64,000 nucleotides of DNA from an uncultured Eubacteriales bacterium (GCA_900551295.1 URVJ01000012.1:1861-65860); one strand, 5' to 3'. Counted from the stretch's first letter, positions 1,927 through 59,670 are shown. Numbers and translations: made by a program. Notes: generated from the sequence alone by a model not told the origin.

Positions 1927-2025
1927 CGTTAAATCAAAACGACATCTGTATCATTTTTGCGGCTCTTTTCGGGAACCCGCAAACTATCAAACAAAAGGCA
2001 GCGGATCATATTCCGTTTTATGCTT

Positions 2026-2200
2026 TAGCGCCCGACCGCCGAAAAACAGTTCACGGCGGCGACGAGGAACAGGGTTATCGAATATTCGGCGGATGCCCTG
2101 ACGGCAGTGCGGTTACTGTCGGAAATTTCTGTTTCAAAAATCCGTATGACACTTCAAAAAAAGTGTTTTCGGCGCAACAAAGGCAGAAATACTTAACGGA
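2026..2200 (+). ncRNA. glmS ribozyme: glmS glucosamine-6-phosphate-activated ribozyme
   Basis: AGCGCC...GACGAGGAACAGGGTTATCGAATATTCGGCGGATGCCCTGACGGC...AACAAAGGCAGAAAT matches the conserved Bacillus glmS ribozyme core. It sits directly 5' of glmS. Confidence 0.9.
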
Positions 2201-8562: not shown

Positions 8563-9690
8563 TTAAATTTTTCTTCTTGCCTTGGGAGCTTTGCCGGTGC
8601 TCTTGATATGAGCCTTCATCTTAGGCGTAAGCTCGCCCTTTTGGGTGCTTACTCTGAGTCCGTCGTCCTTTTTCTTTGCTCCCGACTTATCGGTTTCGAC
8701 GGTCTTATCGTAATCGTCTATCTCATATGCCGCCTTAACGGGCTTTTTCGAGGCTTTTCCTTTGAGCGCAAGCTCGGCAGCCTTAATATCCTCCTCCGTT
8801 ACCTGCGGAATGGGATAAAGCTTATAGAGAAGTATCTGCTGTGCCGCGGAGAGAATGTTCTGGAACATCCAGTAAACGGCGATAGCCGACGAAACCGAAA
8901 ACGAGATCCATACCGACATAAGAGGCATTGTCCAGTCCATCATTGCAAGGCTTCTTGCCTGTGCGGGGTCGCTTGCCTGAGGCTGATATGTGAATTTTCT
9001 TATTATCTTTGTGCTGAAGAATGCAAATACAAACGTAAGAACCGGTATGAGAAGATACGGAAGATTCTCACGCGCAAAATTTATGCTCGGAGTTATTGTC
9101 ATATCAATTCCGAAGATATTGAAAGACTTATGCATTGAAAGAATCTTTTCGTAAATACCGTTCCAGTCGGCGCCCATGGCTTCTCCGACTTTTGCGGCAA
9201 TATCAGAGTCACCGACAATAGCGTTTATCGTGGCTATTTCACTGTACTTTGAAACAGTTACGTCCGCAACCGTACCGTATGCCGCGGTAAGCTTTGAAAC
9301 AACGTCAGATCCGAGGTTTGCGATATAGGTGAGCGGCTTTATAATAACGCCGTAAAGCGCAAACAGCACGGGCATCTGTATAAGCAGCGGCAGGCAGCCG
9401 GACATCGGATTGATGTTCTCCTCCTGGTAGAGCTGCATGATCTCTTCATTGAGTTTCTGTTGGGTTACCTTATCGTTTCTGCCGGCATACTTCTTGCGTA
9501 TAGCCATTTCCTTAGGTCTCATTCTCGACTGCTTTATCGAGTTTTTCTGCTGCTTTATGCCAAGCGGCAAGAGAAGAACCTTGATTATTACGGCGAACAA
9601 AAAGAGCGTCAGCAAATAATTCTGTCCGAATACATTATAAATGTTGCGGATTATCCAGCCAAACGCCGGTGATAAAATCGGAATATCCAT
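8563..9690 (-). CDS. yidC: membrane protein insertase YidC (clostridial long form)
   Basis: Motifs PKEMAIRKKYAG...INPMSGCLPLLIQMPVLFALY and a basic C-terminal tail. Its start overlaps the yidD stop (TAATG). Confidence 0.93.
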   Translation of the reverse strand: MDIPILSPAFGWIIRNIYNVFGQNYLLTLFLFAVIIKVLLLPLGIKQQKNSIKQSRMRPKEMAIRKKYAGRNDKVTQQKLNEEIMQLYQEENINPMSGCLPLLIQMPVLFALYGVIIKPLTYIANLGSDVVSKLTAAYGTVADVTVSKYSEIATINAIVGDSDIAAKVGEAMGADWNGIYEKILSMHKSFNIFGIDMTITPSINFARENLPYLLIPVLTFVFAFFSTKIIRKFTYQPQASDPAQARSLAMMDWTMPLMSVWISFSVSSAIAVYWMFQNILSAAQQILLYKLYPIPQVTEEDIKAAELALKGKASKKPVKAAYEIDDYDKTVETDKSGAKKKDDGLRVSTQKGELTPKMKAHIKSTGKAPKARRKI

Positions 9691-9950
9691 TACTTTTTCT
9701 CCATACTTTTAGATTTTTTATTTGCAAATCTGATTTTCGGCGGAACTTTGTCTATTCCTCCCCTGCAAAACGGGTTGCACCTAAGCAGTCTCCAAACCGC
9801 AAGCGCCGTTCCGGCAAAAAAGCCGTGAACTCTGTAAGCTTCGAGCGCATACTCCGAGCAGGTCGGATAAAAACGGCAGGTCGGTCTTACTTTCAGCGGA
9901 GAAACAAATTTTCTGTACAGCCGAATCAAAAACATACAAACATATTTCAT
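9690..9950 (-). CDS. yidD: membrane protein insertion efficiency factor YidD
   Basis: [14 protein letters not shown]...[17 protein letters not shown] signature. Confidence 0.93.
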
Positions 9951-10324
9951 TTTTCTTTATTTTCAAGCAGTCCGAGTTTTGCAAAAGACGCCGTGAGCTG
10001 TCTCTCTATATCGGTACTCTTAACTTTTTTACCGAATGCCGCGCCTCTTGCGGCAATGACAATTATATATCCTTCCCGAAGTTTCGGCAAAACCGCTCTG
10101 TATCCCTCTCGTATTATCCTCTTTACGCGGCTGCGCTTGCACGCCTTGCCGAGTTTTCGGTTTATCGAAAGTCCGAGCCTGTCCGGAAGTGGTTTTCCCT
10201 CTTTATCTTTACGGTAATTTTTGAGTACGTATACCGCGGTATACTTTCCGGCGTCGCTCTTTCCCTTTCTGTACGCTTTGACATACAGATGATTTTCGCA
10301 CAACGGGTACAATTTTCTGTTCAT
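9947..10324 (-). CDS. rnpA: ribonuclease P protein component
   Basis: Basic 125-aa protein with [23 protein letters not shown]. Sits between rpmH and yidD. Has a 4-nt ATGA overlap with yidD. Confidence 0.92.
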
Positions 10325-10425
10325 ATCCTAAAATTAAATGAAAAGGGTGAAACCCACCTGTGTCCCGGCATTAAAGCAGCACAACATATATGAGTTTTCA
10401 CCCTTTTATCTTTTTTGACTTCAGA

Positions 10426-10560
10426 TTAATAAGTGAGTCTTGCTCTGCCCTTAGCGCGTCTTCTCTTTAAAACCTTTCTGCCGTTAGCAGTCTTCATACG
10501 CTTTCTGAAACCGTGCTCTACTTTTCTCTGACGTTTCTTAGGCTGATATGTTCTTACCAT
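10426..10560 (-). CDS. rpmH: 50S ribosomal protein L34
   Basis: [44 protein letters not shown] (44 aa). The ORF-track start at 10614 is an upstream in-frame extension. Confidence 0.97.
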
Positions 10561-10646
10561 GTGCACTGCACCTCTCTTTCCGATTCTAAGCATCTGAAAT
10601 ACGCACAGCCGCATACTTCAAAGCACAACTTAACAAATTTATCTAT

Positions 10647-10676
10647 ATTATACACGCAAGAGGGTGCTTTTGTCAA
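10647..10676 (-). promoter_or_regulatory. sigma-A-like promoter for rpmH (TTGACA-18 nt-TATAAT)
   Basis: The minus strand reads cTTGACAaaagcaccctcttgcgtgTATAATatag, about 85 nt upstream of the rpmH start. Confidence 0.7.
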
Positions 10677-10733
10677 GTCTTTTTTTCCTCTGCGGCATAC
10701 TTTTATATAAACTTTTTGAAAACTTTATTCTTT

Positions 10734-11708
10734 TCAGACAAGTCCGAGCCTGCGCAGAGCAAAGCTCCATGCGAAAATCGTCGCGGTACAAAGCAGCGTT
10801 GTAAGCAGTATTATCTGGTTTGCAAGCTTATAATCGCTGTTCATGTTTTTTGCCATTATAAAGCTTGAAACGGCAGTCGGTGTGCCGAATGCTATAAGCA
10901 CAAGTCCGAGATGTATTCCCGTAAAACCGAGAACATAGTGCGACACCGCCATCATGACAGCCGGCACGGCAACGGTTTTAATCACCGACGCGGTTACGGC
11001 TTTCGCGGCTCTTCCTTTCAGGTCGGCAAATCTGAACGACGCGCCTATCGTTATAAGTGCGATCGGCGACGCACAGTCGGAAAAATATCCGAGCGTTTTG
11101 ACCGCAAACGGCGGAAGCGTCAAATCGTACACGCAGAAAGGAACCGCGAGCACGACCGCGATTATCAGCGGATTTTTAACTATTCCGCAAAGCACGTTTA
11201 TTATTTTTGAAACAAGCTTTCTGCCGTTTCCCTTTTCCGAGCCGTCGAAGATGCAAAGTACGATTACCGCAAGCACGTTATACAGCGGTATCATGCAGGC
11301 AATAAGCACTGCGGCAAGCCTTGCACCCTCATCTCCGAAAAGATTCTGCGCGAACGGCACGCCCAAAAACGCCATGTTTGAACGGAATATGCCCTGTATA
11401 AACGCTCCGCACGCGCCTCTGTTCTTTATAAATGCAGGCACGAATATCATAAGCAATAATGTAAGCGCAAGCGTTGCCGAAACGCAGAATCCCGCAAGAC
11501 CGAAATCTCTCGGTATCAGCGCGTCTTTATCCACGAACGCGACCTTTGTAAACAGCATACACGGCAGCATTACGCGGAATACAAGCTTATCGGCGCACGT
11601 CACAAAGCTGTCGGTAAGCACGCCCGTGCTTTTAAGCACATATCCGACAAGCGATACAATGAATATCGGAAGAACTCCGTTTGCGCAGAAGTAAAGATCG
11701 GAAAGCAT
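10734..11708 (-). CDS. AEC (auxin efflux carrier) family permease
   Basis: About 10 TM segments. N-terminus MLSDLYFCANGVLPIFIVSLVGYVLK and overall organisation are typical of AEC transporters. Confidence 0.75.
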   Translation of the reverse strand: MLSDLYFCANGVLPIFIVSLVGYVLKSTGVLTDSFVTCADKLVFRVMLPCMLFTKVAFVDKDALIPRDFGLAGFCVSATLALTLLLMIFVPAFIKNRGACGAFIQGIFRSNMAFLGVPFAQNLFGDEGARLAAVLIACMIPLYNVLAVIVLCIFDGSEKGNGRKLVSKIINVLCGIVKNPLIIAVVLAVPFCVYDLTLPPFAVKTLGYFSDCASPIALITIGASFRFADLKGRAAKAVTASVIKTVAVPAVMMAVSHYVLGFTGIHLGLVLIAFGTPTAVSSFIMAKNMNSDYKLANQIILLTTLLCTATIFAWSFALRRLGLV

Positions 11709-11717
11709 ACTTAAAAA

Positions 11718-13232
11718 TTACTCCTCGTCGGTTCTGTAAAAGTCTTCGATAAGAAATTCATTGGGTATTGCGTTATCGATTATTCTGCGAAGTCCCGACA
11801 TGGTATTTCCGGGATCGCTTATTCTCTGGCAGCGGTGCGCGGAAAGCAGATCTTCGGTATAATCGGAAAATTTATATATCTTGAACTTTCTCCACGACGT
11901 ATTATACTGGCACACCGTCGGGATAAAATACGGTGCGTCAACGAACGCGGCGTCTCCTGCCTTTACAAGGTCAAATCCCGCAATTCCGCCGACCATGTTT
12001 CTCATATACAGCATTCCCGAAAGGAAATTTCCGAGAGAGTATATGACAAGCGTTCTTCCGCCGTCGGGTCTTTCGTGCCATTCCATGGGTTCGAGAACGT
12101 GCGGATGCGTGCCGATTATTACGTCGACGCCGTTATCCACCATTATCTGCATCTGCTTTTTCTGAAGATCCGACGGTTTGAACCAGTCCTCATTTCCCCA
12201 GTGAATCGACACCATTACTATATCGGCAAGCTTTCTTGCCTCTTTTGTCATTCTGTCTATATCCTTTGTTCCGCTTTCATCGCAAAGAGGTATTACCATT
12301 TTGCTTGACGACGCGAGCGGTATGCCGTTTGTACCGTAGGTATACGAAAGCAGCGCTATGGATATGCCGTCCTTTTCGATAACGCGTATATTATTGTAGT
12401 CGTCCTTATCGGTATAGCCGCCGATATAGGTTATAGGCTGTTTTTTCCAGAACTCGACGGTTCTTTCATATCCGCTTGTACCGGAATCAAGCATATGGTT
12501 ATTTGCAAGGTTTACTATATCGAATCCAAGCTCCATGAGGTCATACCCGACCTGATCGGGAGAGTTGAACATGGGATAGCCAGAATAGCCCTTTTCGGGA
12601 CCTCCGAACGGAGATTCCTGATTGATATATGCAATGTCCGCGTCCTTGATTATATCCGCGACGTTTGAAAACATGGGAATAAAATTATATTCCTTATCCG
12701 TACCTGCGGCGAGGTCTTTGGCGTCGGCAAGCACGGTTGAATGTACGATATTGTCTCCGCACGCGACAAAAGACACTCTCGTAGTCTGCACCTTCTGAGA
12801 AACCTCTCCGAGCGCACTTACGGCAAGAGGATAGTTTGCGACGGCTGCCGGCTTTGACGAATCTGACTTTTTCTTATCGTTTTTTGCGTCGTTCTTATCC
12901 GTGTTCTTATCCGTGTTCTTATCCGACTTTTTATCCGTCTTTGATTCGGCTTTTTCATCTGATTTTGTATCTGTTTTTACATCGGGCTTAGGTTTGTTTT
13001 CGTCGTTTGAGTCCGTGTTATCATCTTTTTTTGTTTCGTTATCCGTCTGAATGCCGTTTTGGGCTTTTTCGTCGGGTTTATCGGACTTTTTATCGGGTTT
13101 TACCGTCCGGACGGTGCTTTGAGTATCGTCCTTTACGGGCGCGTTCTGCGAATCAATGGTATTCTTTACAAAAAGCAGTGTCAGCGCCGCAACAATAACA
13201 ATAACGGCAGCGGCAGCAATTCTGTTGTTCAT
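11718..13232 (-). CDS. CapA-family (PGA_cap metallophosphatase-like) protein with N-terminal TM anchor and K/D/T-rich linker
   Basis: ACGDNIVHSTV...NLANNHMLDSG...VSIHWGNE...IIGTHPHVLEP motifs. Has an N-terminal hydrophobic helix and a roughly 95-aa low-complexity linker. Confidence 0.85.
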   Translation of the reverse strand: MNNRIAAAAVIVIVAALTLLFVKNTIDSQNAPVKDDTQSTVRTVKPDKKSDKPDEKAQNGIQTDNETKKDDNTDSNDENKPKPDVKTDTKSDEKAESKTDKKSDKNTDKNTDKNDAKNDKKKSDSSKPAAVANYPLAVSALGEVSQKVQTTRVSFVACGDNIVHSTVLADAKDLAAGTDKEYNFIPMFSNVADIIKDADIAYINQESPFGGPEKGYSGYPMFNSPDQVGYDLMELGFDIVNLANNHMLDSGTSGYERTVEFWKKQPITYIGGYTDKDDYNNIRVIEKDGISIALLSYTYGTNGIPLASSSKMVIPLCDESGTKDIDRMTKEARKLADIVMVSIHWGNEDWFKPSDLQKKQMQIMVDNGVDVIIGTHPHVLEPMEWHERPDGGRTLVIYSLGNFLSGMLYMRNMVGGIAGFDLVKAGDAAFVDAPYFIPTVCQYNTSWRKFKIYKFSDYTEDLLSAHRCQRISDPGNTMSGLRRIIDNAIPNEFLIEDFYRTDEE

Positions 13233-37753: not shown

Positions 37754-37827
37754 TGCTTAAAATTACATTTATATATCAGTATCGGGCATAATAATATCAA
37801 AAAATGTGTTCGGGAGAAACTGAAAAA

Positions 37828-38769
37828 ATGAAACAGGCGGTTATAGACATAGGTTCAAACTCGGTAAGGCTTACGCTTTATGAGTTGGACGGCACTGAGT
37901 TTAAAATACTTTTCAGAGAAAAAATTATGGCAGGACTTGCAGGATACGTTGACGAAAACGGGAATTTAAGCCCTATCGGAATAGAATGTGCGTGTTCGGG
38001 ACTTAAAATTTTTTTCGATATTTTAAAGTCGCTGCATATTGACAACACAGCGGTCTTTGCAACAGCGTCTTTACGCAACATAAACAACACAACCGAGGCT
38101 GTATCTCAGATAAAAGCCGCGTGCGGATACGATATTGAAATTCTGAGTGAAAATGACGAGGCTTTATGCGGCTACTACGGCGCAATGCGCGAATTTGAGC
38201 TGCCTGACGGCGCGTTTATCGACGTCGGCGGAGGAAGTACGGAGGTCGTCACGTTTGAAAACGCAAAAGTCATAGACTGCATCAGCTTTCCGATAGGCTC
38301 GCTCAGCCTGTATTCGTCATGCGTAAAGAAAATTCTTCCCGGAAAAGGTTCAACAGAGCGAATACTCGGCGAAATCAAAAAGCAAACCGACGGGTGCGAG
38401 ATCTTTTCGTCATACGCAAAGCGCAAAGTGCTGACAGGCGTCGGAGGCACGGCAAGAGGACTTCTCAAAATTGCAAAAAGCTGTTTTGAACTTCCCGAAA
38501 GCTGCCGCTGCATATCGGCGTATCAGCTCGGAAAACTAACCGATTTTTTATGTTCGGGCTCAAAAAAGGCGTCGGATCTCATACTAAAGCTCGAACCTGA
38601 CAGAATTCACACCATTGTTCCAGGAGTTATGATTCTGCATCACATATTCCGCCTTTTGGGTGCGGACGAGCTTATTGTCAGCAAATACGGTGTCAGAGAA
38701 GGTTATTTATGCACAAAACTTTACCCGTCGGCAAAAGAAAATACGACTGCACTCAAAACCGTGAATTAA
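37828..38769 (+). CDS. ppx: Ppx/GppA-family phosphatase (short-form exopolyphosphatase)
   Basis: MKQAVIDIGSNSVRLTLYE and DVGGGSTEV ASKHA-fold motifs. Confidence 0.88.
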   Translation: MKQAVIDIGSNSVRLTLYELDGTEFKILFREKIMAGLAGYVDENGNLSPIGIECACSGLKIFFDILKSLHIDNTAVFATASLRNINNTTEAVSQIKAACGYDIEILSENDEALCGYYGAMREFELPDGAFIDVGGGSTEVVTFENAKVIDCISFPIGSLSLYSSCVKKILPGKGSTERILGEIKKQTDGCEIFSSYAKRKVLTGVGGTARGLLKIAKSCFELPESCRCISAYQLGKLTDFLCSGSKKASDLILKLEPDRIHTIVPGVMILHHIFRLLGADELIVSKYGVREGYLCTKLYPSAKENTTALKTVN

Positions 38770-40685
38770 GCCAGCTCGACTTTAACGGACGCGTGCTGTC
38801 ACTTGCGGCAAACAGCGATATTCCGCCTTTGGAAAAGATTAAATTTATAGGAATATTCTGCTCAAACTCCGACGAATTTTACAAAGTCCGCATAAACAGG
38901 CTGATCAAAGCCGCGAAAAGCAAAAATATGCACCCGGACGCAAAATCAGGGCTGTACCCTAAAGAGCTGCTCGAATGTATTCTGCAAAAAACAAGAAAGC
39001 TGATTGCAGCAAAAAAGCTTTTGCTGCGCGGTGTTTTCGATGAGCTTAAAAGACACGGCATAACGGAAACGTGCGTTTCGGCTCTTTCGGAAAAAGATTA
39101 CGGGATCTGCGAAAACTTTATGAAAAAAACCTTTAGCGGCGTAAAAATCCATTATGTAAAGCGCGGACAAAAAGTATCGTTCAAAGACGGAAAACTCTAT
39201 GCGGTATGCCTGACCGACAGCCAAAAACACACGGCGTGCGTATTGGAAATGCCACCGCAGACCGCACCTTTTATAAGGCTTTCCGCAAAAAACTTCAGAT
39301 ATATAAGAACCGAAAGTCTGATACTTCATTTTTTGCCGCACATTTTTAAAGACCTTACAATAACGGAAATCTGCATTGCCAAACCCGTGCAGAACGGCGA
39401 CATAACAATACCCGAACGCACTTTCAGAAATCACGGCGACGACGCGTGCAAAGCCGTATTGAAACTTGCAAAAAAGCGTGAAGGTCAGCGTGTTATCAAA
39501 CTCGAAGTCTGCAACAAAATCTCGCCGCTGCTAAAAAAAACTCTGTCGGACTTTTCGGGAGTGCCGCAGGAATTTATATTTGATGATTCCGGAATATCTG
39601 ACAAAAGTTTTTTTGATGAGATTTACCGCACCGCAAAGCAAAAAAATCCGTGCCTTGCATATACGTGCCATATACCGCTTGTTTCAAGCGAATTTTCCGT
39701 TACGCAAAGCGTTTCGGACATCGTAAAACGTCGCGACAGGCTTATTTTTTATCCGTATGACAGCACCGACACGTTTTTCAGGCTCTTAAAGGAATCGGCA
39801 TACAACAAAATGGTTTCTTCGGTAAAGATCACGGTTTACAGGCTTGCCGAAAACTCCGTCGCCGCAAAGCTTTTATGTCTTGCCGCAAGAAACGGCAAGT
39901 CCGTCACGGTTATAATTGAACTGCGCGCACGCTTTGATGAGCAGAACAACCTTAAATGGGGACGTATTCTCGAAAAAGCCGGCTGCCGCGTTATTTACAG
40001 AACAAGCGGTCACAAATGCCATGCAAAAGTGTGCCTTATAACGCAAAAATCAAAAAAAGGCTGTTCATATATCACACAGATAAGCACGGGAAACTACAAT
40101 GAAGTCACAAACACGCTGTACACCGATCTTTGCTTTTTTACGGCAGACAAAGATATCGGAAAAGACGCGTCGCGCTTTTTTAAAAGCCTTGAAAACGGCG
40201 AAGATCCGTGCGGTTTAAAACATTTAAACGCCGCTCCTTCCGACATACGAAATGAGTTATTAAAAAGAATAGACGAGCAGGCGAACTGCGGCAAAAACGG
40301 ATATATCTGCATAAAGGCAAACTCGCTTTCTGACGGAGAAGTTATAAAAAAATTAATAAACGCCTCAAAAAAAGGCGCCGAAATCCATCTTTATATACGC
40401 GGAATATGCTGTATCAAGCCGAATGTTCCGTTTTCCACCGAAAACATTGAGGTAAAAAGCATTGTCGGCAGATTTTTGGAACACGCGAGAATTTATATGT
40501 TCGGAAAAGCGCCCGACGCTCACCTCTACATCTCGTCAGCCGATCTCATGCCGAGAAATCTGCGCCGCAGAAACGAAATGCTCTGCCCCGTTTACGACAG
40601 GGCTGTACGTGAAAAGCTGTTTTCAATACTTTACGCTCAAAGCGAAAAAAAACAAAATTACACCGCCGATTACAGCGGTGCATAA
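38709..40685 (+). CDS. ppk: polyphosphate kinase 1
   Basis: NRELSQLDFNGRVL...LEKIKFIGIFCSNSDEFYKVRI N-domain, the phospho-His region HKCHAKVCLI...STGNYN, and the second PLD-like motif GRFLEHARIYMFG. AGAAGG lies upstream of ATG 38709. Confidence 0.92.
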   Translation: MHKTLPVGKRKYDCTQNRELSQLDFNGRVLSLAANSDIPPLEKIKFIGIFCSNSDEFYKVRINRLIKAAKSKNMHPDAKSGLYPKELLECILQKTRKLIAAKKLLLRGVFDELKRHGITETCVSALSEKDYGICENFMKKTFSGVKIHYVKRGQKVSFKDGKLYAVCLTDSQKHTACVLEMPPQTAPFIRLSAKNFRYIRTESLILHFLPHIFKDLTITEICIAKPVQNGDITIPERTFRNHGDDACKAVLKLAKKREGQRVIKLEVCNKISPLLKKTLSDFSGVPQEFIFDDSGISDKSFFDEIYRTAKQKNPCLAYTCHIPLVSSEFSVTQSVSDIVKRRDRLIFYPYDSTDTFFRLLKESAYNKMVSSVKITVYRLAENSVAAKLLCLAARNGKSVTVIIELRARFDEQNNLKWGRILEKAGCRVIYRTSGHKCHAKVCLITQKSKKGCSYITQISTGNYNEVTNTLYTDLCFFTADKDIGKDASRFFKSLENGEDPCGLKHLNAAPSDIRNELLKRIDEQANCGKNGYICIKANSLSDGEVIKKLINASKKGAEIHLYIRGICCIKPNVPFSTENIEVKSIVGRFLEHARIYMFGKAPDAHLYISSADLMPRNLRRRNEMLCPVYDRAVREKLFSILYAQSEKKQNYTADYSGA

Positions 40686-40708
40686 CACAAAAAAATCAAA
40701 CAAAAAAT

Positions 40709-40727
40709 GACGGGAAAAAAACCCGTC
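40709..40727. terminator. bidirectional rho-independent terminator between convergent ppk and agrB
   Basis: GACGGG-A7-CCCGTC. On the minus strand this reads GACGGG-T7-CCCGTC followed by ATTTTTTGTTTG. The plus-strand tail is TTATATTTTAT. Confidence 0.85.
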
Positions 40728-40820
40728 TTATATTTTATATTCAAAGCGTTCATATGCGCAATTATATGGATAGGTGATTGTTTTGAGGAAAACGCACAGA
40801 ACGCCGTGAAAACAAAATAA

Positions 40821-41408
40821 CTAATTATTTTCGGCGCATTTTCCGTTATAGGCAATTCCCGCGTACATGAGTATTCCGTCGACAAACAGCGTAACGCACG
40901 CCGTTACGGCAAGTTCATAATCAAAATACACGCCTGTAAGCGCCGCAGCCGAAAGTATGCTGCTCCAGATAACAGCCCTTATGCGGTTGCTTTTCTTTTG
41001 CTTTTCGGTAAGCTTTTTATTGGGGTGCGCCACGGGTGCGAAAATTATCACCGTCACAATGCAGAAAATGCACATAAGCGCACACATCGGAAACACAAAA
41101 GCGCTTTTTGCGGCAAAGTACGAAACCGCAAGCACCGTACCGAAAGTTACAAGCATTGAGGTTCTGCACAGCGCAAAAGTTTTTGCGTGAAATCCGCCCG
41201 AATAGCGTCTTACCGTCCAGAGAAATGCAAGAAATACGACGGAATCAAAGAATCTTCCGAAAAGCGCGCCTATTATCCCTACCATTGCAAAATTTATAAT
41301 GTCGGCAAAAATAAGCTTAAATCCGTAGCTGTATATCTCGCGTTTTTCGTCAGGTATGCATTTTTTCTTTACGTAATAATCCGTTATTCCGTCTGCCAGT
41401 CTGTCCAT
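40821..41408 (-). CDS. agrB: AgrB-family accessory gene regulator protein B (AgrD-processing membrane peptidase-like)
   Basis: The RRYSGGFHAKTFALC motif has His and Cys 7 residues apart, as for the catalytic H77/C84 of S. aureus AgrB. About 6 TM segments and a typical N-terminus (ITDYYVKKKCIPDEKREIYSYGFKLIF). Start taken at MDRLADG. Confidence 0.8.
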   Translation of the reverse strand: MDRLADGITDYYVKKKCIPDEKREIYSYGFKLIFADIINFAMVGIIGALFGRFFDSVVFLAFLWTVRRYSGGFHAKTFALCRTSMLVTFGTVLAVSYFAAKSAFVFPMCALMCIFCIVTVIIFAPVAHPNKKLTEKQKKSNRIRAVIWSSILSAAALTGVYFDYELAVTACVTLFVDGILMYAGIAYNGKCAENN

Positions 41409-41470
41409 GTTTCCACCGCCGTGTGTAATAGTTATTATGCGCGAAGCGCATTTCATGTGCCCCTCGGACA

Positions 41471-41537
41471 CTTTTCATGAAACTTTAGTTTCAATTCATG
41501 CCGGAACGGCAATTCATTCTTATAGAGTATTATATCA
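41471..41537 (-). promoter_or_regulatory. agrB promoter (TGATATAAT extended -10) plus conserved leader/operator module, copy B
   Basis: The minus strand reads ctgTGATATAATactctataagAATGAATTGCCGTTCCGGCATGAATTGAAACTAAAGTTTCATGAAAAG, which is homologous to 25521-25581 on the plus strand. Confidence 0.65.
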
Positions 41538-41562
41538 CAGACAGCCGAAAAATGTCGCTTTT

Positions 41563-41600
41563 GGCACAACTAACACAAATAGCGGCACAACTAACACAAA
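41563..41600 (-). promoter_or_regulatory. two perfect 17-bp direct repeats, 21-bp period (LytTR/VirR-box-like activator site)
   Basis: GGCACAACTAACACAAA occurs at 41563-41579 and again at 41584-41600. On the agrB strand this is TTTGTGTTAGTTGTGCC twice, ending 25 nt upstream of the extended -10. Confidence 0.55.
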
Positions 41601-41769
41601 GCGTTTGATTTTTCGTTCCGTATTCTCACAAAAAGTCACAAATCGTTATATAAATTTTCCTCGGAATTTGCCGTTATCCATTATTTCCGGGAGATCTTCA
41701 CGTTTCCTTTTGCCGTCAGCCGACGGAAAAAATCTGAGCGGCAAAAAAGACAGTTTATCTGTGGACCAA

Positions 41770-41797
41770 AACAAAAAAGCCGGATTTCAAGTCCGGC
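41770..41797 (-). terminator. rho-independent terminator of P-type ATPase gene
   Basis: On the minus strand, GCCGGA-CTTGAAA-TCCGGC followed by TTTTTTGTTTT. Confidence 0.88.
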
Positions 41798-41805
41798 TCA
41801 TTATA

Positions 41806-44250
41806 TTAACTTTGTGTGTTATTTTGCAGTAATTTTGCTTTTAGTTTCAGATATTTCAGCCGTACAAACTCAAAAGCAGCCGAGATATAATTCTGCACCG
41901 TCATCATAGGAAGAATAAGCAGCACCGTAAGAAGAACGCAGCCTATGTCAAGCCTTGATATATTGAAAAACTCAGGCAGCAATGCGATACACAGTATATA
42001 CAGTGTTCCCATTGCCGAAAACAGAGTTATATGCCACGCGTTGAACGGCTTGCAGACCTTATAGAGCATCATATATCCGGCAGCGGAATAGACTATGCAG
42101 GCGACGGTCGACATCATCGCGTATTCTATGCCGAAAGACTGTGCGAACACAATAAGACATTCTACGAGAAACACCGCTGTAAGCGCAGTCGGAAACGCAC
42201 GGTAAAGCACATTTCGCAGAAACTTTCCCTTTACAAGCTCCTTATTCGGTTCAAGCGCTAAGAAAAACGACGGTATTCCTATCATCATGCACGAGGCGAG
42301 CGAAATCTGAACGGGCTTTAACGGATAGTACGACACGGTTATTATTGAAAGCAGCGTCATAAAGAAAGAAAAAATATTCTTGACCAAGAACATTGACGCC
42401 GTTCTTTCTATATTATTTATAACGCGTCTGCCCTCATCTACAACGTGCGGCATACTCGAAAAATCGGAATTTACAAGCACCATATCCGAGACGTTTGCCG
42501 CGGCTTTGCTGCCCGATGCCATAGCCACGCTGCAATCTGCGTCCTTGAGTGCGAGAACGTCGTTTACTCCGTCGCCTGTCATTGCAACGGTATGCTTATT
42601 CTTTTTTAGCGCGCGTATTATCAGCCTTTTCTGTTCGGGACTTACCCTGCCGAACACGGTACATTCAAGAGTTTTTGCAAAAGTCAGTTCTTCGTCCGAA
42701 AGCTTTGACGCGTCAACGTACTTATCGGCATTCGGGATACCTGCCTTTGCCGCAACGGCCGCAACAGCCGCCGGATTATCTCCCGAAATAACCTTGACGT
42801 TTACTCCCTGCGAGGCAAAATATGAAAAAGTCTGCGCCGCGCTCTGTCTTATCGGGTTTGACAGCACCGCAAACAGCAGCGGTTCTATTTTAACATTGCA
42901 GCCGTTTTCCGAAAGAACGCTGTCCGAATCTTCGCCGCCAAATACCTTGCCGAAAGCAAGCACGCGTTTACCGCACGAAATATATTCCGAAATTCTCCCG
43001 TCATACTGCGAAAAATCACTTCCCAGCAGCATTTCAGGCGCGCCGAAAACATAGGTATTTCCGTCGTCAAGGCTGCACGCGCTGTATTTTGTAAGAGATG
43101 AAAACTCTTTCTTTCGCACTGCTTTGCCAAACGGCTTTATATCATTTTGTACAAAATAATTCGTAACAGCGTCGGAGGTCACGTTCTGCGTTTCCATTGC
43201 CGAAACAAGGCTGCAAAGCTTTTGCAGTGCGCCGCTCTGATCTTGACACACCGGTACTATCTCATCAAGCGCCATTTCAGGCTCGGTTATGGTTCCGGTC
43301 TTATCTACGCATATAACGTCTACCCTTGCAAGGCTCTCTATACACTTCATGTCGTGAACCAGCGTTCCGCCCTTTGCAAGTCTTATTGTGCTTGCGGCAA
43401 GCGCTACGCTTGTAAGCAGATACAATCCCTCGGGTATCATGCCTATCGACGAGGCGACGGCGTTCTCCACGCTTTCCTTTACCGAAAGTCCGAGCGTTGC
43501 GTGCTGATTGAAATACATTATCAGCGCAAACGGGATTATGATTATGCCTATTGCCATTATGAGTATATTAAGCGAACGCATCATTCCGGGACGGGTGCGT
43601 TTTTTGGTCTTTTTCGCGTCGGACATCAGTCTTGAGGCAAAGGATTCATCGCCCACGGCGTCAAGTCTTGCGCGGCACTTTCCCGACACTGCAAAGCTTC
43701 CCGAAAGCAGTCTGTCGCCGGTTACTTTCTTTATCTCGTCCGCCTCTCCCGTGACAAGCGACTCGTTTACGAAAATCTCTCCGCTTACAACAACCGCATC
43801 GGCAGGTATCTGATCGCCGCTTTCAAGCTCTGTTATATCGTCGAGTACAAGATCTTCGCTGTTTACCGTCATCTTTACGCCGCCGCGTATAACATTACTT
43901 GTCGGACACGCCATAAGGTTAAGCTTGTCGAGCATTTTCCGCGAACGCAGTTCCTGCACTATGCCTATTACGGTATTTGAAACCACAACGCCCAAAAAAG
44001 CCATATGATTATACGACCTCTGCCACAAAAGCACTGCGGCAAACACAAAGAAAATTATATTGAAATAGGTAAACACATTCTTTGTTATTATTTTTGCCGT
44101 GCTGTGACGGTTATCGGACGATGTTTTATTCGTAAGGTTCTGCGCCTGTCTTTCGCTCACCTTTTCCGCGTCAAGTCCGTATTCCGGATCGGGCGTATAA
44201 CGGTACACCGTATATTCGGCTTTGGGATTTCTTTGTTTTTTATTTAACAC
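41806..44250 (-). CDS. cation-translocating P-type ATPase (HAD subfamily IC)
   Basis: DKTGTITE phosphorylation site, TGES-type actuator region (LVTGEAD), MTGDGVNDVLALKDADCSVAM hinge, and about 10 TM segments. Confidence 0.93.
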   Translation of the reverse strand: MLNKKQRNPKAEYTVYRYTPDPEYGLDAEKVSERQAQNLTNKTSSDNRHSTAKIITKNVFTYFNIIFFVFAAVLLWQRSYNHMAFLGVVVSNTVIGIVQELRSRKMLDKLNLMACPTSNVIRGGVKMTVNSEDLVLDDITELESGDQIPADAVVVSGEIFVNESLVTGEADEIKKVTGDRLLSGSFAVSGKCRARLDAVGDESFASRLMSDAKKTKKRTRPGMMRSLNILIMAIGIIIIPFALIMYFNQHATLGLSVKESVENAVASSIGMIPEGLYLLTSVALAASTIRLAKGGTLVHDMKCIESLARVDVICVDKTGTITEPEMALDEIVPVCQDQSGALQKLCSLVSAMETQNVTSDAVTNYFVQNDIKPFGKAVRKKEFSSLTKYSACSLDDGNTYVFGAPEMLLGSDFSQYDGRISEYISCGKRVLAFGKVFGGEDSDSVLSENGCNVKIEPLLFAVLSNPIRQSAAQTFSYFASQGVNVKVISGDNPAAVAAVAAKAGIPNADKYVDASKLSDEELTFAKTLECTVFGRVSPEQKRLIIRALKKNKHTVAMTGDGVNDVLALKDADCSVAMASGSKAAANVSDMVLVNSDFSSMPHVVDEGRRVINNIERTASMFLVKNIFSFFMTLLSIITVSYYPLKPVQISLASCMMIGIPSFFLALEPNKELVKGKFLRNVLYRAFPTALTAVFLVECLIVFAQSFGIEYAMMSTVACIVYSAAGYMMLYKVCKPFNAWHITLFSAMGTLYILCIALLPEFFNISRLDIGCVLLTVLLILPMMTVQNYISAAFEFVRLKYLKLKAKLLQNNTQS

Positions 44251-59459: not shown

Positions 59460-59483
59460 GTATTCAAATTAATAAATCTTAAT

Positions 59484-59670
59484 CTTATCAAGAGCGGCTG
59501 AGGGAACAGGACCGAAGATGCCCGGCAACCTGTCTGAACAAAATTCGGACAAGGTGCTACTTCCTGCATGATATTCACGTTTTTGCAAAGCGCGGCGCGG
59601 TTATCATGAAAGATGAGAAGTAAACGACTTCTTCCCTGCTCTGATTTTTTCGGTGCAGGGTGTTTTTTTC
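59484..59670 (+). promoter_or_regulatory. SAM-I (S-box) riboswitch with terminator expression platform
   Basis: CTTATCAAGAGCGGCTGAGGGAACAGGACCGAAGATGCCCGGCAACC...AAGGTGCTACTTCCTGCA matches the S-box core. The terminator is CCCTGC...GCAGGG followed by TGTTTTTTT (59634-59669). Confidence 0.92.

Follow-up and report, generated by a model that had tools for sequence, protein, structure and literature searches.

A solitary agrB gene with a predicted RNA hairpin in the usual place of agrD in an uncultured Eubacteriales bacterium

The agr quorum-sensing operon of Staphylococcus aureus is a complete agrBDCA unit, in which paired AgrA boxes accompany the P2 and P3 promoters, themselves characterized by an over-long spacer. 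The structured RNAIII, which is also under AgrA control, is a separate, divergent transcript of 514 nucleotides (nt) displaying UCCC loops. In the fsrB/fsrD system of Enterococcus faecalis, the peptide precursor was once taken for an extension at the C-terminus of the AgrB homologue; fsrD has its own start and constitutes a conserved in-frame open reading frame (ORF). The present work concerns a DNA stretch of 64,000 nt from an uncultured Eubacteriales bacterium (GCA_900551295.1 URVJ01000012.1:1861-65860), hereafter called the window, where an agrB gene (40821..41408, minus strand) stands without agrD, agrC or agrA. The place usually occupied by agrD appears to hold a conserved, stably folded RNA hairpin of ~90 nt, followed by a predicted intrinsic terminator. 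The interpretation that we favor, with a probability of roughly 0.6, is that this solitary agrB is functional and represents half of an agr-type quorum-sensing regulon that has been split, whose substrate and regulator would be encoded elsewhere and to which a structured 3' RNA element would belong.

Several described systems share part of this organization. In C. difficile, agrB1D1 and the small RNA SpoZ are both driven, via direct repeats, by the unlinked RgaS-RgaR (PMC10602386). The window resembles C. difficile agr1 in that agrB is located away from a sensor and a regulator and that the promoter carries repeats of the LytTR/VirR type, the corresponding regulator not being encoded at the locus. 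The two differ in that agrD directly follows agrB in C. difficile and that SpoZ originates from a separate locus, whereas in the window the RNA is joined to agrB at its 3' end. In C. perfringens, according to passages of PMC7492741, agrBD is unlinked from the sensing VirS/VirR, so that, as in the window, the genes producing the autoinducing peptide (AIP) are separated from the two-component system; as far as these passages go, agrD is nevertheless adjacent to agrB, unlike the window, and the AIP is a Cys thiolactone, whereas the relatives of the window AgrB are accompanied by Ser-type precursors. With the boxes present and no regulator in its 64 kb, the window fits the unlinked-regulator part of the agrBD-only class formed by C. 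difficile agr1 and C. perfringens and fails its agrD part. A third case is provided by Clostridium (Hungateiclostridium) thermocellum, in which an experimentally confirmed Ser-lactone AgrD pentapeptide originates from a gene located outside any agr operon and to which no AgrB has been assigned (PMC5322536). This orphan AgrD, Clo1313_2818, is the mirror image of the present locus, the peptide being the orphan in C. thermocellum and the peptidase in the window.

The 195-amino-acid (aa) product of agrB, counted from an ATG codon to the TAG stop codon at 40821-40823, is a predicted AgrB-family membrane cysteine peptidase. The initial annotation, made from the sequence alone, had assigned it to AgrB on account of a hallmark motif, of a His and a Cys spaced as H77 and C84 of S. 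aureus AgrB and of about six transmembrane segments, and had proposed a search with the Pfam AgrB model. The match to PF04647 is significant (E=8.2e-37; 126.8 bits for a cut-off of 23; model positions 2-173 of 185) and the motif and the spacing were found as described. The motif RRYSGGFHAKTFALC corresponds to AgrB residues 67-81, in which R67, G72, H74 and C81 (offsets +5, +7 and +14) reproduce the spacing of R70, G75, H77 and C84 of S. aureus, and these four residues are invariant in an alignment of 40 AgrB homologues. The basic patch H128-P129-N130-K131-K132 is the counterpart of S. aureus K129-131; in the same alignment, K131 is invariant and N130 nearly so. In S. aureus AgrB, R70, G75, H77 and C84 are required for proteolysis and K129-131 for AIP formation (PMC10196373). 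Approximately six hydrophobic stretches, putative membrane segments, were delineated by a Kyte-Doolittle scan, and no solved structure of an AgrB homologue was found in the PDB.

Loci in which AgrB is 86-100% identical to that of the window form a clade of four lineages, namely the window with loci L003 and L004, L085-87 (95%), L081-84 (93%) and L001-02 (86%), and agrB is convergent on ppk in all of them. When the window is compared to the three sister lineages, the ratio of non-synonymous to synonymous substitution rates (dN/dS) of agrB amounts to 0.08-0.11 for a synonymous divergence (dS) of 0.26-0.82. The values of 0.19-0.24 obtained for the neighboring ppk indicate that agrB is under tighter constraint. 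At least 12 independent assemblies display an intact agrB ORF accompanied by its conserved Shine-Dalgarno sequence, promoter, operator and terminator. The stop codon is the same in the independent assemblies of the window lineage (L003 and L004) and is found at the same position or one codon later in eight further assemblies of the sister lineages; as it is shared among independent assemblies, it is not a read error. These comparisons indicate that agrB encodes an intact AgrB peptidase maintained by strong purifying selection. That the gene could be the decaying leftover of a lost agr locus would be in keeping with the absence of agrD, agrC and agrA from the locus, but this is barely credible for a gene displaying a dN/dS of ~0.1 at a dS of up to 0.82, whose ORF is intact in so many assemblies and whose expression signals are conserved; a pseudogene or remnant is refuted by the selection analysis. 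The alternative starts GTG 41471, which would yield a 216-aa version, and ATG 41456 were ruled out, the corresponding segment of the 5' untranslated region (UTR) being missing from the 86% identical orthologue of L001.

In order to place the window within its family, it was compared to 61 loci, drawn from metagenomes as well as reference genomes, in which AgrB shares 32-53% identity with that of the window. The set comprises metagenome-assembled genomes (MAGs) of gut and rumen Clostridia, Oscillospiraceae, Ruminococcus and the cultured Ructibacterium gallinarum. A hidden Markov model (HMM) of the AgrD family identified, in 58 of these loci, an ORF of 45-62 aa that either overlaps the agrB stop or abuts it (for instance at L006:6581-6742 and L054:5584-5754, within family loci L005-L042 and L054-L076). 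Wherever the contig extends far enough, agrA (Response_reg and LytTR) and agrC (HATPase_c_5) are located directly upstream, and the gene order of these relatives is therefore agrA-agrC-agrB-agrD, not agrBDCA. At the locus itself, neither an AgrD-HMM match nor AgrC or AgrA was found in the window or in 11 other loci of the clade. Throughout the 64 kb of the window, tblastn searches with the proteins of the relatives, including the AgrC of two of them, returned no AgrC or AgrA below E~1, and no AgrD was detected either by tblastn or by the AgrD-family HMM applied to all six frames. The absence of adjacent agrD, agrC and agrA, noted in the initial annotation, is thereby confirmed and departs from the rule of the family to which this agrB belongs. 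The window shares with the relatives (L005-L042, L054-L076 and Ructibacterium gallinarum) the AgrB family, the start, the length and the box architecture, with a near-identical box sequence; the relatives differ by the presence of agrD at the agrB stop and of agrA-agrC upstream and by the lack of the conserved 3' hairpin. The clade is isolated, since no AgrB between 53% and 86% identity to that of the window was found in the protein collection. A scan of metagenomes for closer relatives returned only loci of at most 48% identity.

The AgrDs of the relatives align as a single family with the invariant core A-S-x4-[HY][QE]-x3-[PS], where Ala-Ser is invariant and Cys is not conserved. When four of them were compared to NCBIfam TIGR04223, two scored above the cut-off, one scored just below it and one gave no match. 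The arrangement of Clo1313_2818, A|S-x4|Y...P (S25, Y30 and P35, with [HY] at +5 and P at +10), is the layout of this AgrD family found beside the relatives of the window AgrB. From such a pattern, autoinducers of the Ser-lactone pentapeptide type are predicted for many Clostridia of the gut and rumen.

Other arrangements were encountered in the course of this comparison. At L010:5800-6710 and L060:2800-3710, the AgrA boxes, agrB and agrD are present and no agrC or agrA is found within 3-6 kb upstream. The L040:4940-5600 locus displays agrA-agrC-agrB without an AgrD-HMM match downstream and may represent a second agrD-less case. In a different species of the gut, likewise detected in Hadza samples, a presence/absence polymorphism of agrBD distinguishes L090/L091 from L092/L093 (~9000-11900): the same agrA-agrC genes and AgrA-box promoter are followed either by agrB-agrD and two unannotated ORFs of 345 and 257 aa, or directly by a gene encoding an SLH-domain protein. 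In this respect, agrBD behaves in the manner of a cassette.

Upstream of agrB, a predicted sigma-70-type promoter (41529..41558, minus strand) is composed of GCGACA, an 18-nt spacer and TG-TATAAT, with 10/12 matches and an extended -10. It is preceded by what appears to be the AgrA (LytTR) box pair typical of the family. This putative operator (41563..41600, minus strand) is made of two direct repeats of 17 nt, TTTGTGTTAGTTGTGCC, located at 41584-41600 and 41563-41579, which are identical at 17/17 positions, display a start-to-start distance of 21 nt and end 4 nt upstream of the -35; no copies beyond those two exist in the 64 kb. The combination of paired boxes and an 18-nt promoter spacer is reminiscent of P2/P3 of S. 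aureus, as would be the placement of a structured RNA under AgrA control. The promoter and both repeats are invariant in all four lineages, whereas the surrounding non-coding DNA is interrupted by large indels and shows 60-75% identity. In the relatives that possess agrA-agrC, repeats of the same consensus with the same 21-nt spacing are found in the short agrC-agrB spacer, for example TTTGTGTAAGTTGTGCC twice in L015, TTGTGTAAATTGTGCC in L022 and TTGTGTGAGTTGTGCC in L073, and many of these are significant when compared to shuffled sequences; the L015 operator differs from that of the window by 1 nt per repeat. The operator pair was not found in viral contigs. Since the operator is conserved at a dS of ~0.8, a cognate LytTR regulator would be expected somewhere in these genomes.

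Between the promoter and the gene, a variable 5'UTR (41409..41528, minus strand) contains the Shine-Dalgarno sequence GGTGGA and a hairpin module of ~30 nt present in 0, 1 or 2 copies depending on the lineage. This module (CATGAATTGAAACyAAAGTTTCATGAA, ~41470-41500, minus strand) occurs once in the window and in two tandem copies in L081 and L085, and is missing from L001. The small ORFs of the 5'UTR were ruled out as peptide precursor by a 62-nt indel relative to L001 and by the variation in copy number.

Particular attention was devoted to the gap separating agrB from the convergent ppk (40686..40820, both strands considered), where agrD would be expected. The initial annotation had correctly reported a length of 135 nt, a bidirectional terminator of 19 nt and three ORFs: 30 sense codons continuing in frame past the TAG (LFCFHGVLCVFLKTITYPYNCAYERFEYKI), a 27-aa ATG ORF, which is the tail of a 71-aa ORF at 40670..40885, and a 17-aa TTG ORF at 40815..40762. 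It had also considered that the substrate might be encoded elsewhere, be non-canonical or arise by read-through of the TAG, and had suggested that the gap be compared among related genomes for a conserved frame. In the alignment of the four lineages, none of the three ORFs is conserved, nor is any other on either strand. In the window and L001, agrB ends with TAG, while CAG-TGA, with the stop one codon later, is found in L085 and L081. An A-rich linker measures 6, 2, 7 or 10 nt according to the lineage (indels of 4, 1 and 4 nt), L081 carries an additional 1-nt deletion, and the ATG of the 27-aa ORF is lost in L081 and L001, where CG or TCG is found instead. No frame is kept across the gap on either strand because the ORFs cross indels that are not multiples of 3. 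Moreover, the gap ORFs display no match to TIGR04223, to Pfam or to the family AgrD HMM. The read-through product, the 27-aa ORF and the 17-aa ORF were ruled out on these grounds, as were a 37-aa ORF on the plus strand (40707-40820) and a 37-aa GTG ORF of L001. Recoding of the agrB stop by selenocysteine or pyrrolysine was ruled out as well, UAG being used in two lineages and UGA one codon further in the other two.

It could still be argued that the gap encodes a non-canonical AgrD through read-through, frameshifting or a short ORF, as the frame is open for 30 codons past the stop in the window, the GTG ORF of L001 overlaps the agrB stop in the same manner as agrD does in the relatives, and the region is highly conserved. 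The variable identity and position of the stop, the linker indels and the loss of the ATG in two lineages break every such frame, the frame continuing past the stop has undergone mainly non-synonymous, radical substitutions (G>C, L>P, C>R), and the ORFs, devoid of any AgrD signal, run through the conserved terminator; a peptide from the gap is consequently very improbable and close to refuted. The read-through proposal resembles the fsrB/fsrD case, the difference being that fsrD is a conserved frame and that none is conserved here. Among the three origins considered for the substrate, a gene located elsewhere is thus the best remaining one and would be the expected source, whereas the gap ORFs and read-through did not withstand the comparison.

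The initial annotation had also pointed out that a lack of conservation in the gap would argue against its proposal. The segment extending from the agrB stop to the terminator is in fact 92-98% identical among the lineages, but it is conserved as what appears to be a structured non-coding element and not as a peptide gene. The corresponding identity at fourfold sites of agrB and ppk is 53-81% (binomial p = 3e-5 to 1e-16). The predicted element (40731..40819, minus strand) begins 2 nt past the stop and forms a long imperfect hairpin of ~25 bp that closes a loop of ~32 nt (40760-40791), which reads UUUUCCUCA, a variable A-rich linker and AAUCACCUAUCCAUAUAA. Both loop flanks are invariant with the exception of the base following the final AA, where the window has U and the other three lineages have G, and the length varies exclusively in the middle of the loop. 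For the window element on the agrB strand, the minimum free energy is -38.1 kcal/mol (z = -6.4), and none of 200 shuffled sequences was as stable; the same fold is predicted for the other lineages, where z ranges from -5.1 to -6.1. The opposite strand folds less stably (z = -3.6), and four G-U pairs of the consensus stem also favor the agrB strand. Pairing is kept in 98% of the alignment cells, 21 of the 24 pairs never vary and no compensatory change occurs among the four lineages. No Rfam family describes the element, the best match being GcvB with 20.7 bits for a gathering score of 42, nor does it show a sequence or Rfam relationship to RNAIII of S. aureus. In nhmmer searches, the element was found only after agrB of the window clade and not in the agrD-bearing relatives. 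A repeat, the end of a mobile element or a widespread motif were ruled out by the same searches, two 18-mer matches in viral contigs having unrelated flanks.

The element is followed by a bidirectional intrinsic terminator hairpin of 19 nt (40709..40727), GACGGG-U7-CCCGUC, which obtained a terminator-like score on both strands and whose T-run on the agrB strand extends over 40690-40708. The GACGGG/CCCGTC stem and the T-run are kept in the four lineages, the loop varying in sequence and length, and transcripts of the agrB strand are therefore predicted to end there. The last ppk codons (40659-40682, minus strand) contain another hairpin that is terminator-like on the agrB strand; its T-run is found only in the window lineage, and the hairpin probably results incidentally from the conserved C-terminus of ppk (ADYSGA).

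These observations raise the question of the main output of the module. An unlikely, though not negligible, alternative is that agrD has been replaced by the structured RNA, which would be co-transcribed with agrB from the AgrA-box promoter and act as an RNAIII-like or 3'UTR-derived effector through the single-stranded C/U-rich motifs UUUUCCUCA and AAUCACCUAUCC of its loop, both anti-Shine-Dalgarno-like; AgrB would then process a distant AgrD or be secondary. The element, loop included, is more conserved than either flanking coding sequence, whereas the loop of the adjacent terminator drifts. In favor of this alternative are also the strong and strand-specific fold in all lineages, the restriction of indels to the middle of the loop and the position downstream of the AgrA-box promoter with no intervening terminator, together with the precedent of SpoZ, driven by RgaR boxes in C. 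difficile (PMC10602386). The lack of covariation and of an Rfam relative speaks against it, as does a duplex scan of the loop against the 52 translation-start regions of the window, in which 31% of shuffled loops performed as well as the real one, so that the outcome was not significant. Furthermore, the strong protein-level constraint indicates that agrB is not a mere carrier. At a similarly low likelihood, a bifunctional transcript can be proposed, in which the agrB messenger would carry a regulatory RNA in its 3'UTR, the two invariant C/U-rich loop motifs acting on other mRNAs. If true, this would represent an RNAIII-like effector of independent origin in gut Clostridia, physically fused to an orphan AgrB.

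The split-regulon interpretation can be summarized as follows. The boxes would be bound by a response regulator of the AgrA type, whose gene would lie in another part of the genome, and agrB would thereby be switched on. AgrB would then cleave and cyclize an AgrD-type precursor, likewise encoded elsewhere, which by analogy with the relatives would probably be a Ser-containing A-S-x4-[HY][QE]xxxP peptide yielding a pentapeptide lactone. The hairpin, as part of the 3'UTR of the agrB mRNA, would act either in cis, on stability or processing, or in trans, as a regulatory RNA. This interpretation is supported by the AgrB residues, the orphan status in four lineages, the purifying selection, the operator and the RNA element, and the box-agrB-agrD loci L010 and L060, devoid of nearby agrCA, provide a precedent within the family for unlinked agr parts.

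A number of results weigh against it. No AgrD, AgrC or AgrA gene of the host organism was seen in the 64 kb of genome covered. The regulator could not be identified by means of the 124 homologues of the L015 AgrA, whose operator is the closest to that of the window; the most prevalent of these, P0168, which occurs in Hadza samples too, was ruled out as partner, as it is associated with a different operator and its own agrB-agrD, the agrB being 38% identical. A scan of the genome collection with two peptide patterns gave a single AgrB-family locus for the MAG of the window (contig CAKSEL010000004.1), which derives from Hadza gut samples. Nothing consequently points to an additional, complete agr locus of the same family in that MAG, MAGs being incomplete. 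Finally, the structure of the RNA is supported by folding energy and conservation, not by covariation.

Some of these points are compatible with the retention of AgrB for a role independent of AgrD, such as the processing or export of another small peptide or a different membrane function, in an organism devoid of any AIP precursor. The lack of AgrD in the 64 kb and the single locus returned for the MAG go in this direction, and in C. difficile, as reported in part of PMC8534292, some Agr1 phenotypes separate AgrB1 from AgrD1. Such a role is nonetheless improbable, given that the residues for AgrD cleavage and the NKK motif are all kept and that the promoter retains an operator of the autoinduction type. 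We know of no AgrB for which an AgrD-independent activity has been established.

The surroundings of agrB were also inspected. On its upstream side, a 42-aa ORF (41646-41774, minus strand; ...PEIMDNGKFRGKFI) corresponds to the remaining C-terminal part of a gene encoding an NTP_transf_5 nucleotidyltransferase. This gene is intact upstream of agrB in L001, the 86% relative, while the window lineage has a P-type ATPase gene there (41806-44250). The upstream gene of L001 was considered as a lost agrC and ruled out, being the NTP_transf_5 nucleotidyltransferase itself. On the other side, ppk (38709..40685, plus strand) and ppx (37804-38769) were called with a shared segment of 61 nt (38709-38769). 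The overlap is called likewise in related loci and is either real or due to a consistently mis-called ppk start. Elsewhere in the window, a glmS ribozyme (2016-2170, plus strand) and a SAM-I riboswitch (59482-59619, plus strand), both above their Rfam gathering scores, are ordinary features.

The missing agrD beside a selected agrB, with a conserved RNA in its stead, is unusual. No report of a selected agrB without agrD and with a conserved RNA in its place was found in the literature, which is not proof of absence. It is usually as agrB-agrD pairs that systems of the agr type are recognized and annotated, and the mining of autoinducing peptides leans on this adjacency. The window locus, together with the orphan agrD of C. 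thermocellum, argues that agr circuits of Clostridia can be split across the chromosome; surveys based on adjacency will therefore overlook signals and partners. With its perfectly conserved 17 nt, the operator offers a direct means of locating the remainder of the regulon once a complete genome is at hand. The hairpin located in the place of agrD represents an undescribed RNA element tied to a putative quorum-sensing promoter in a common lineage of the human gut, found in Hadza and other cohorts. Should it act in trans, it would constitute a new effector arm of agr signaling.

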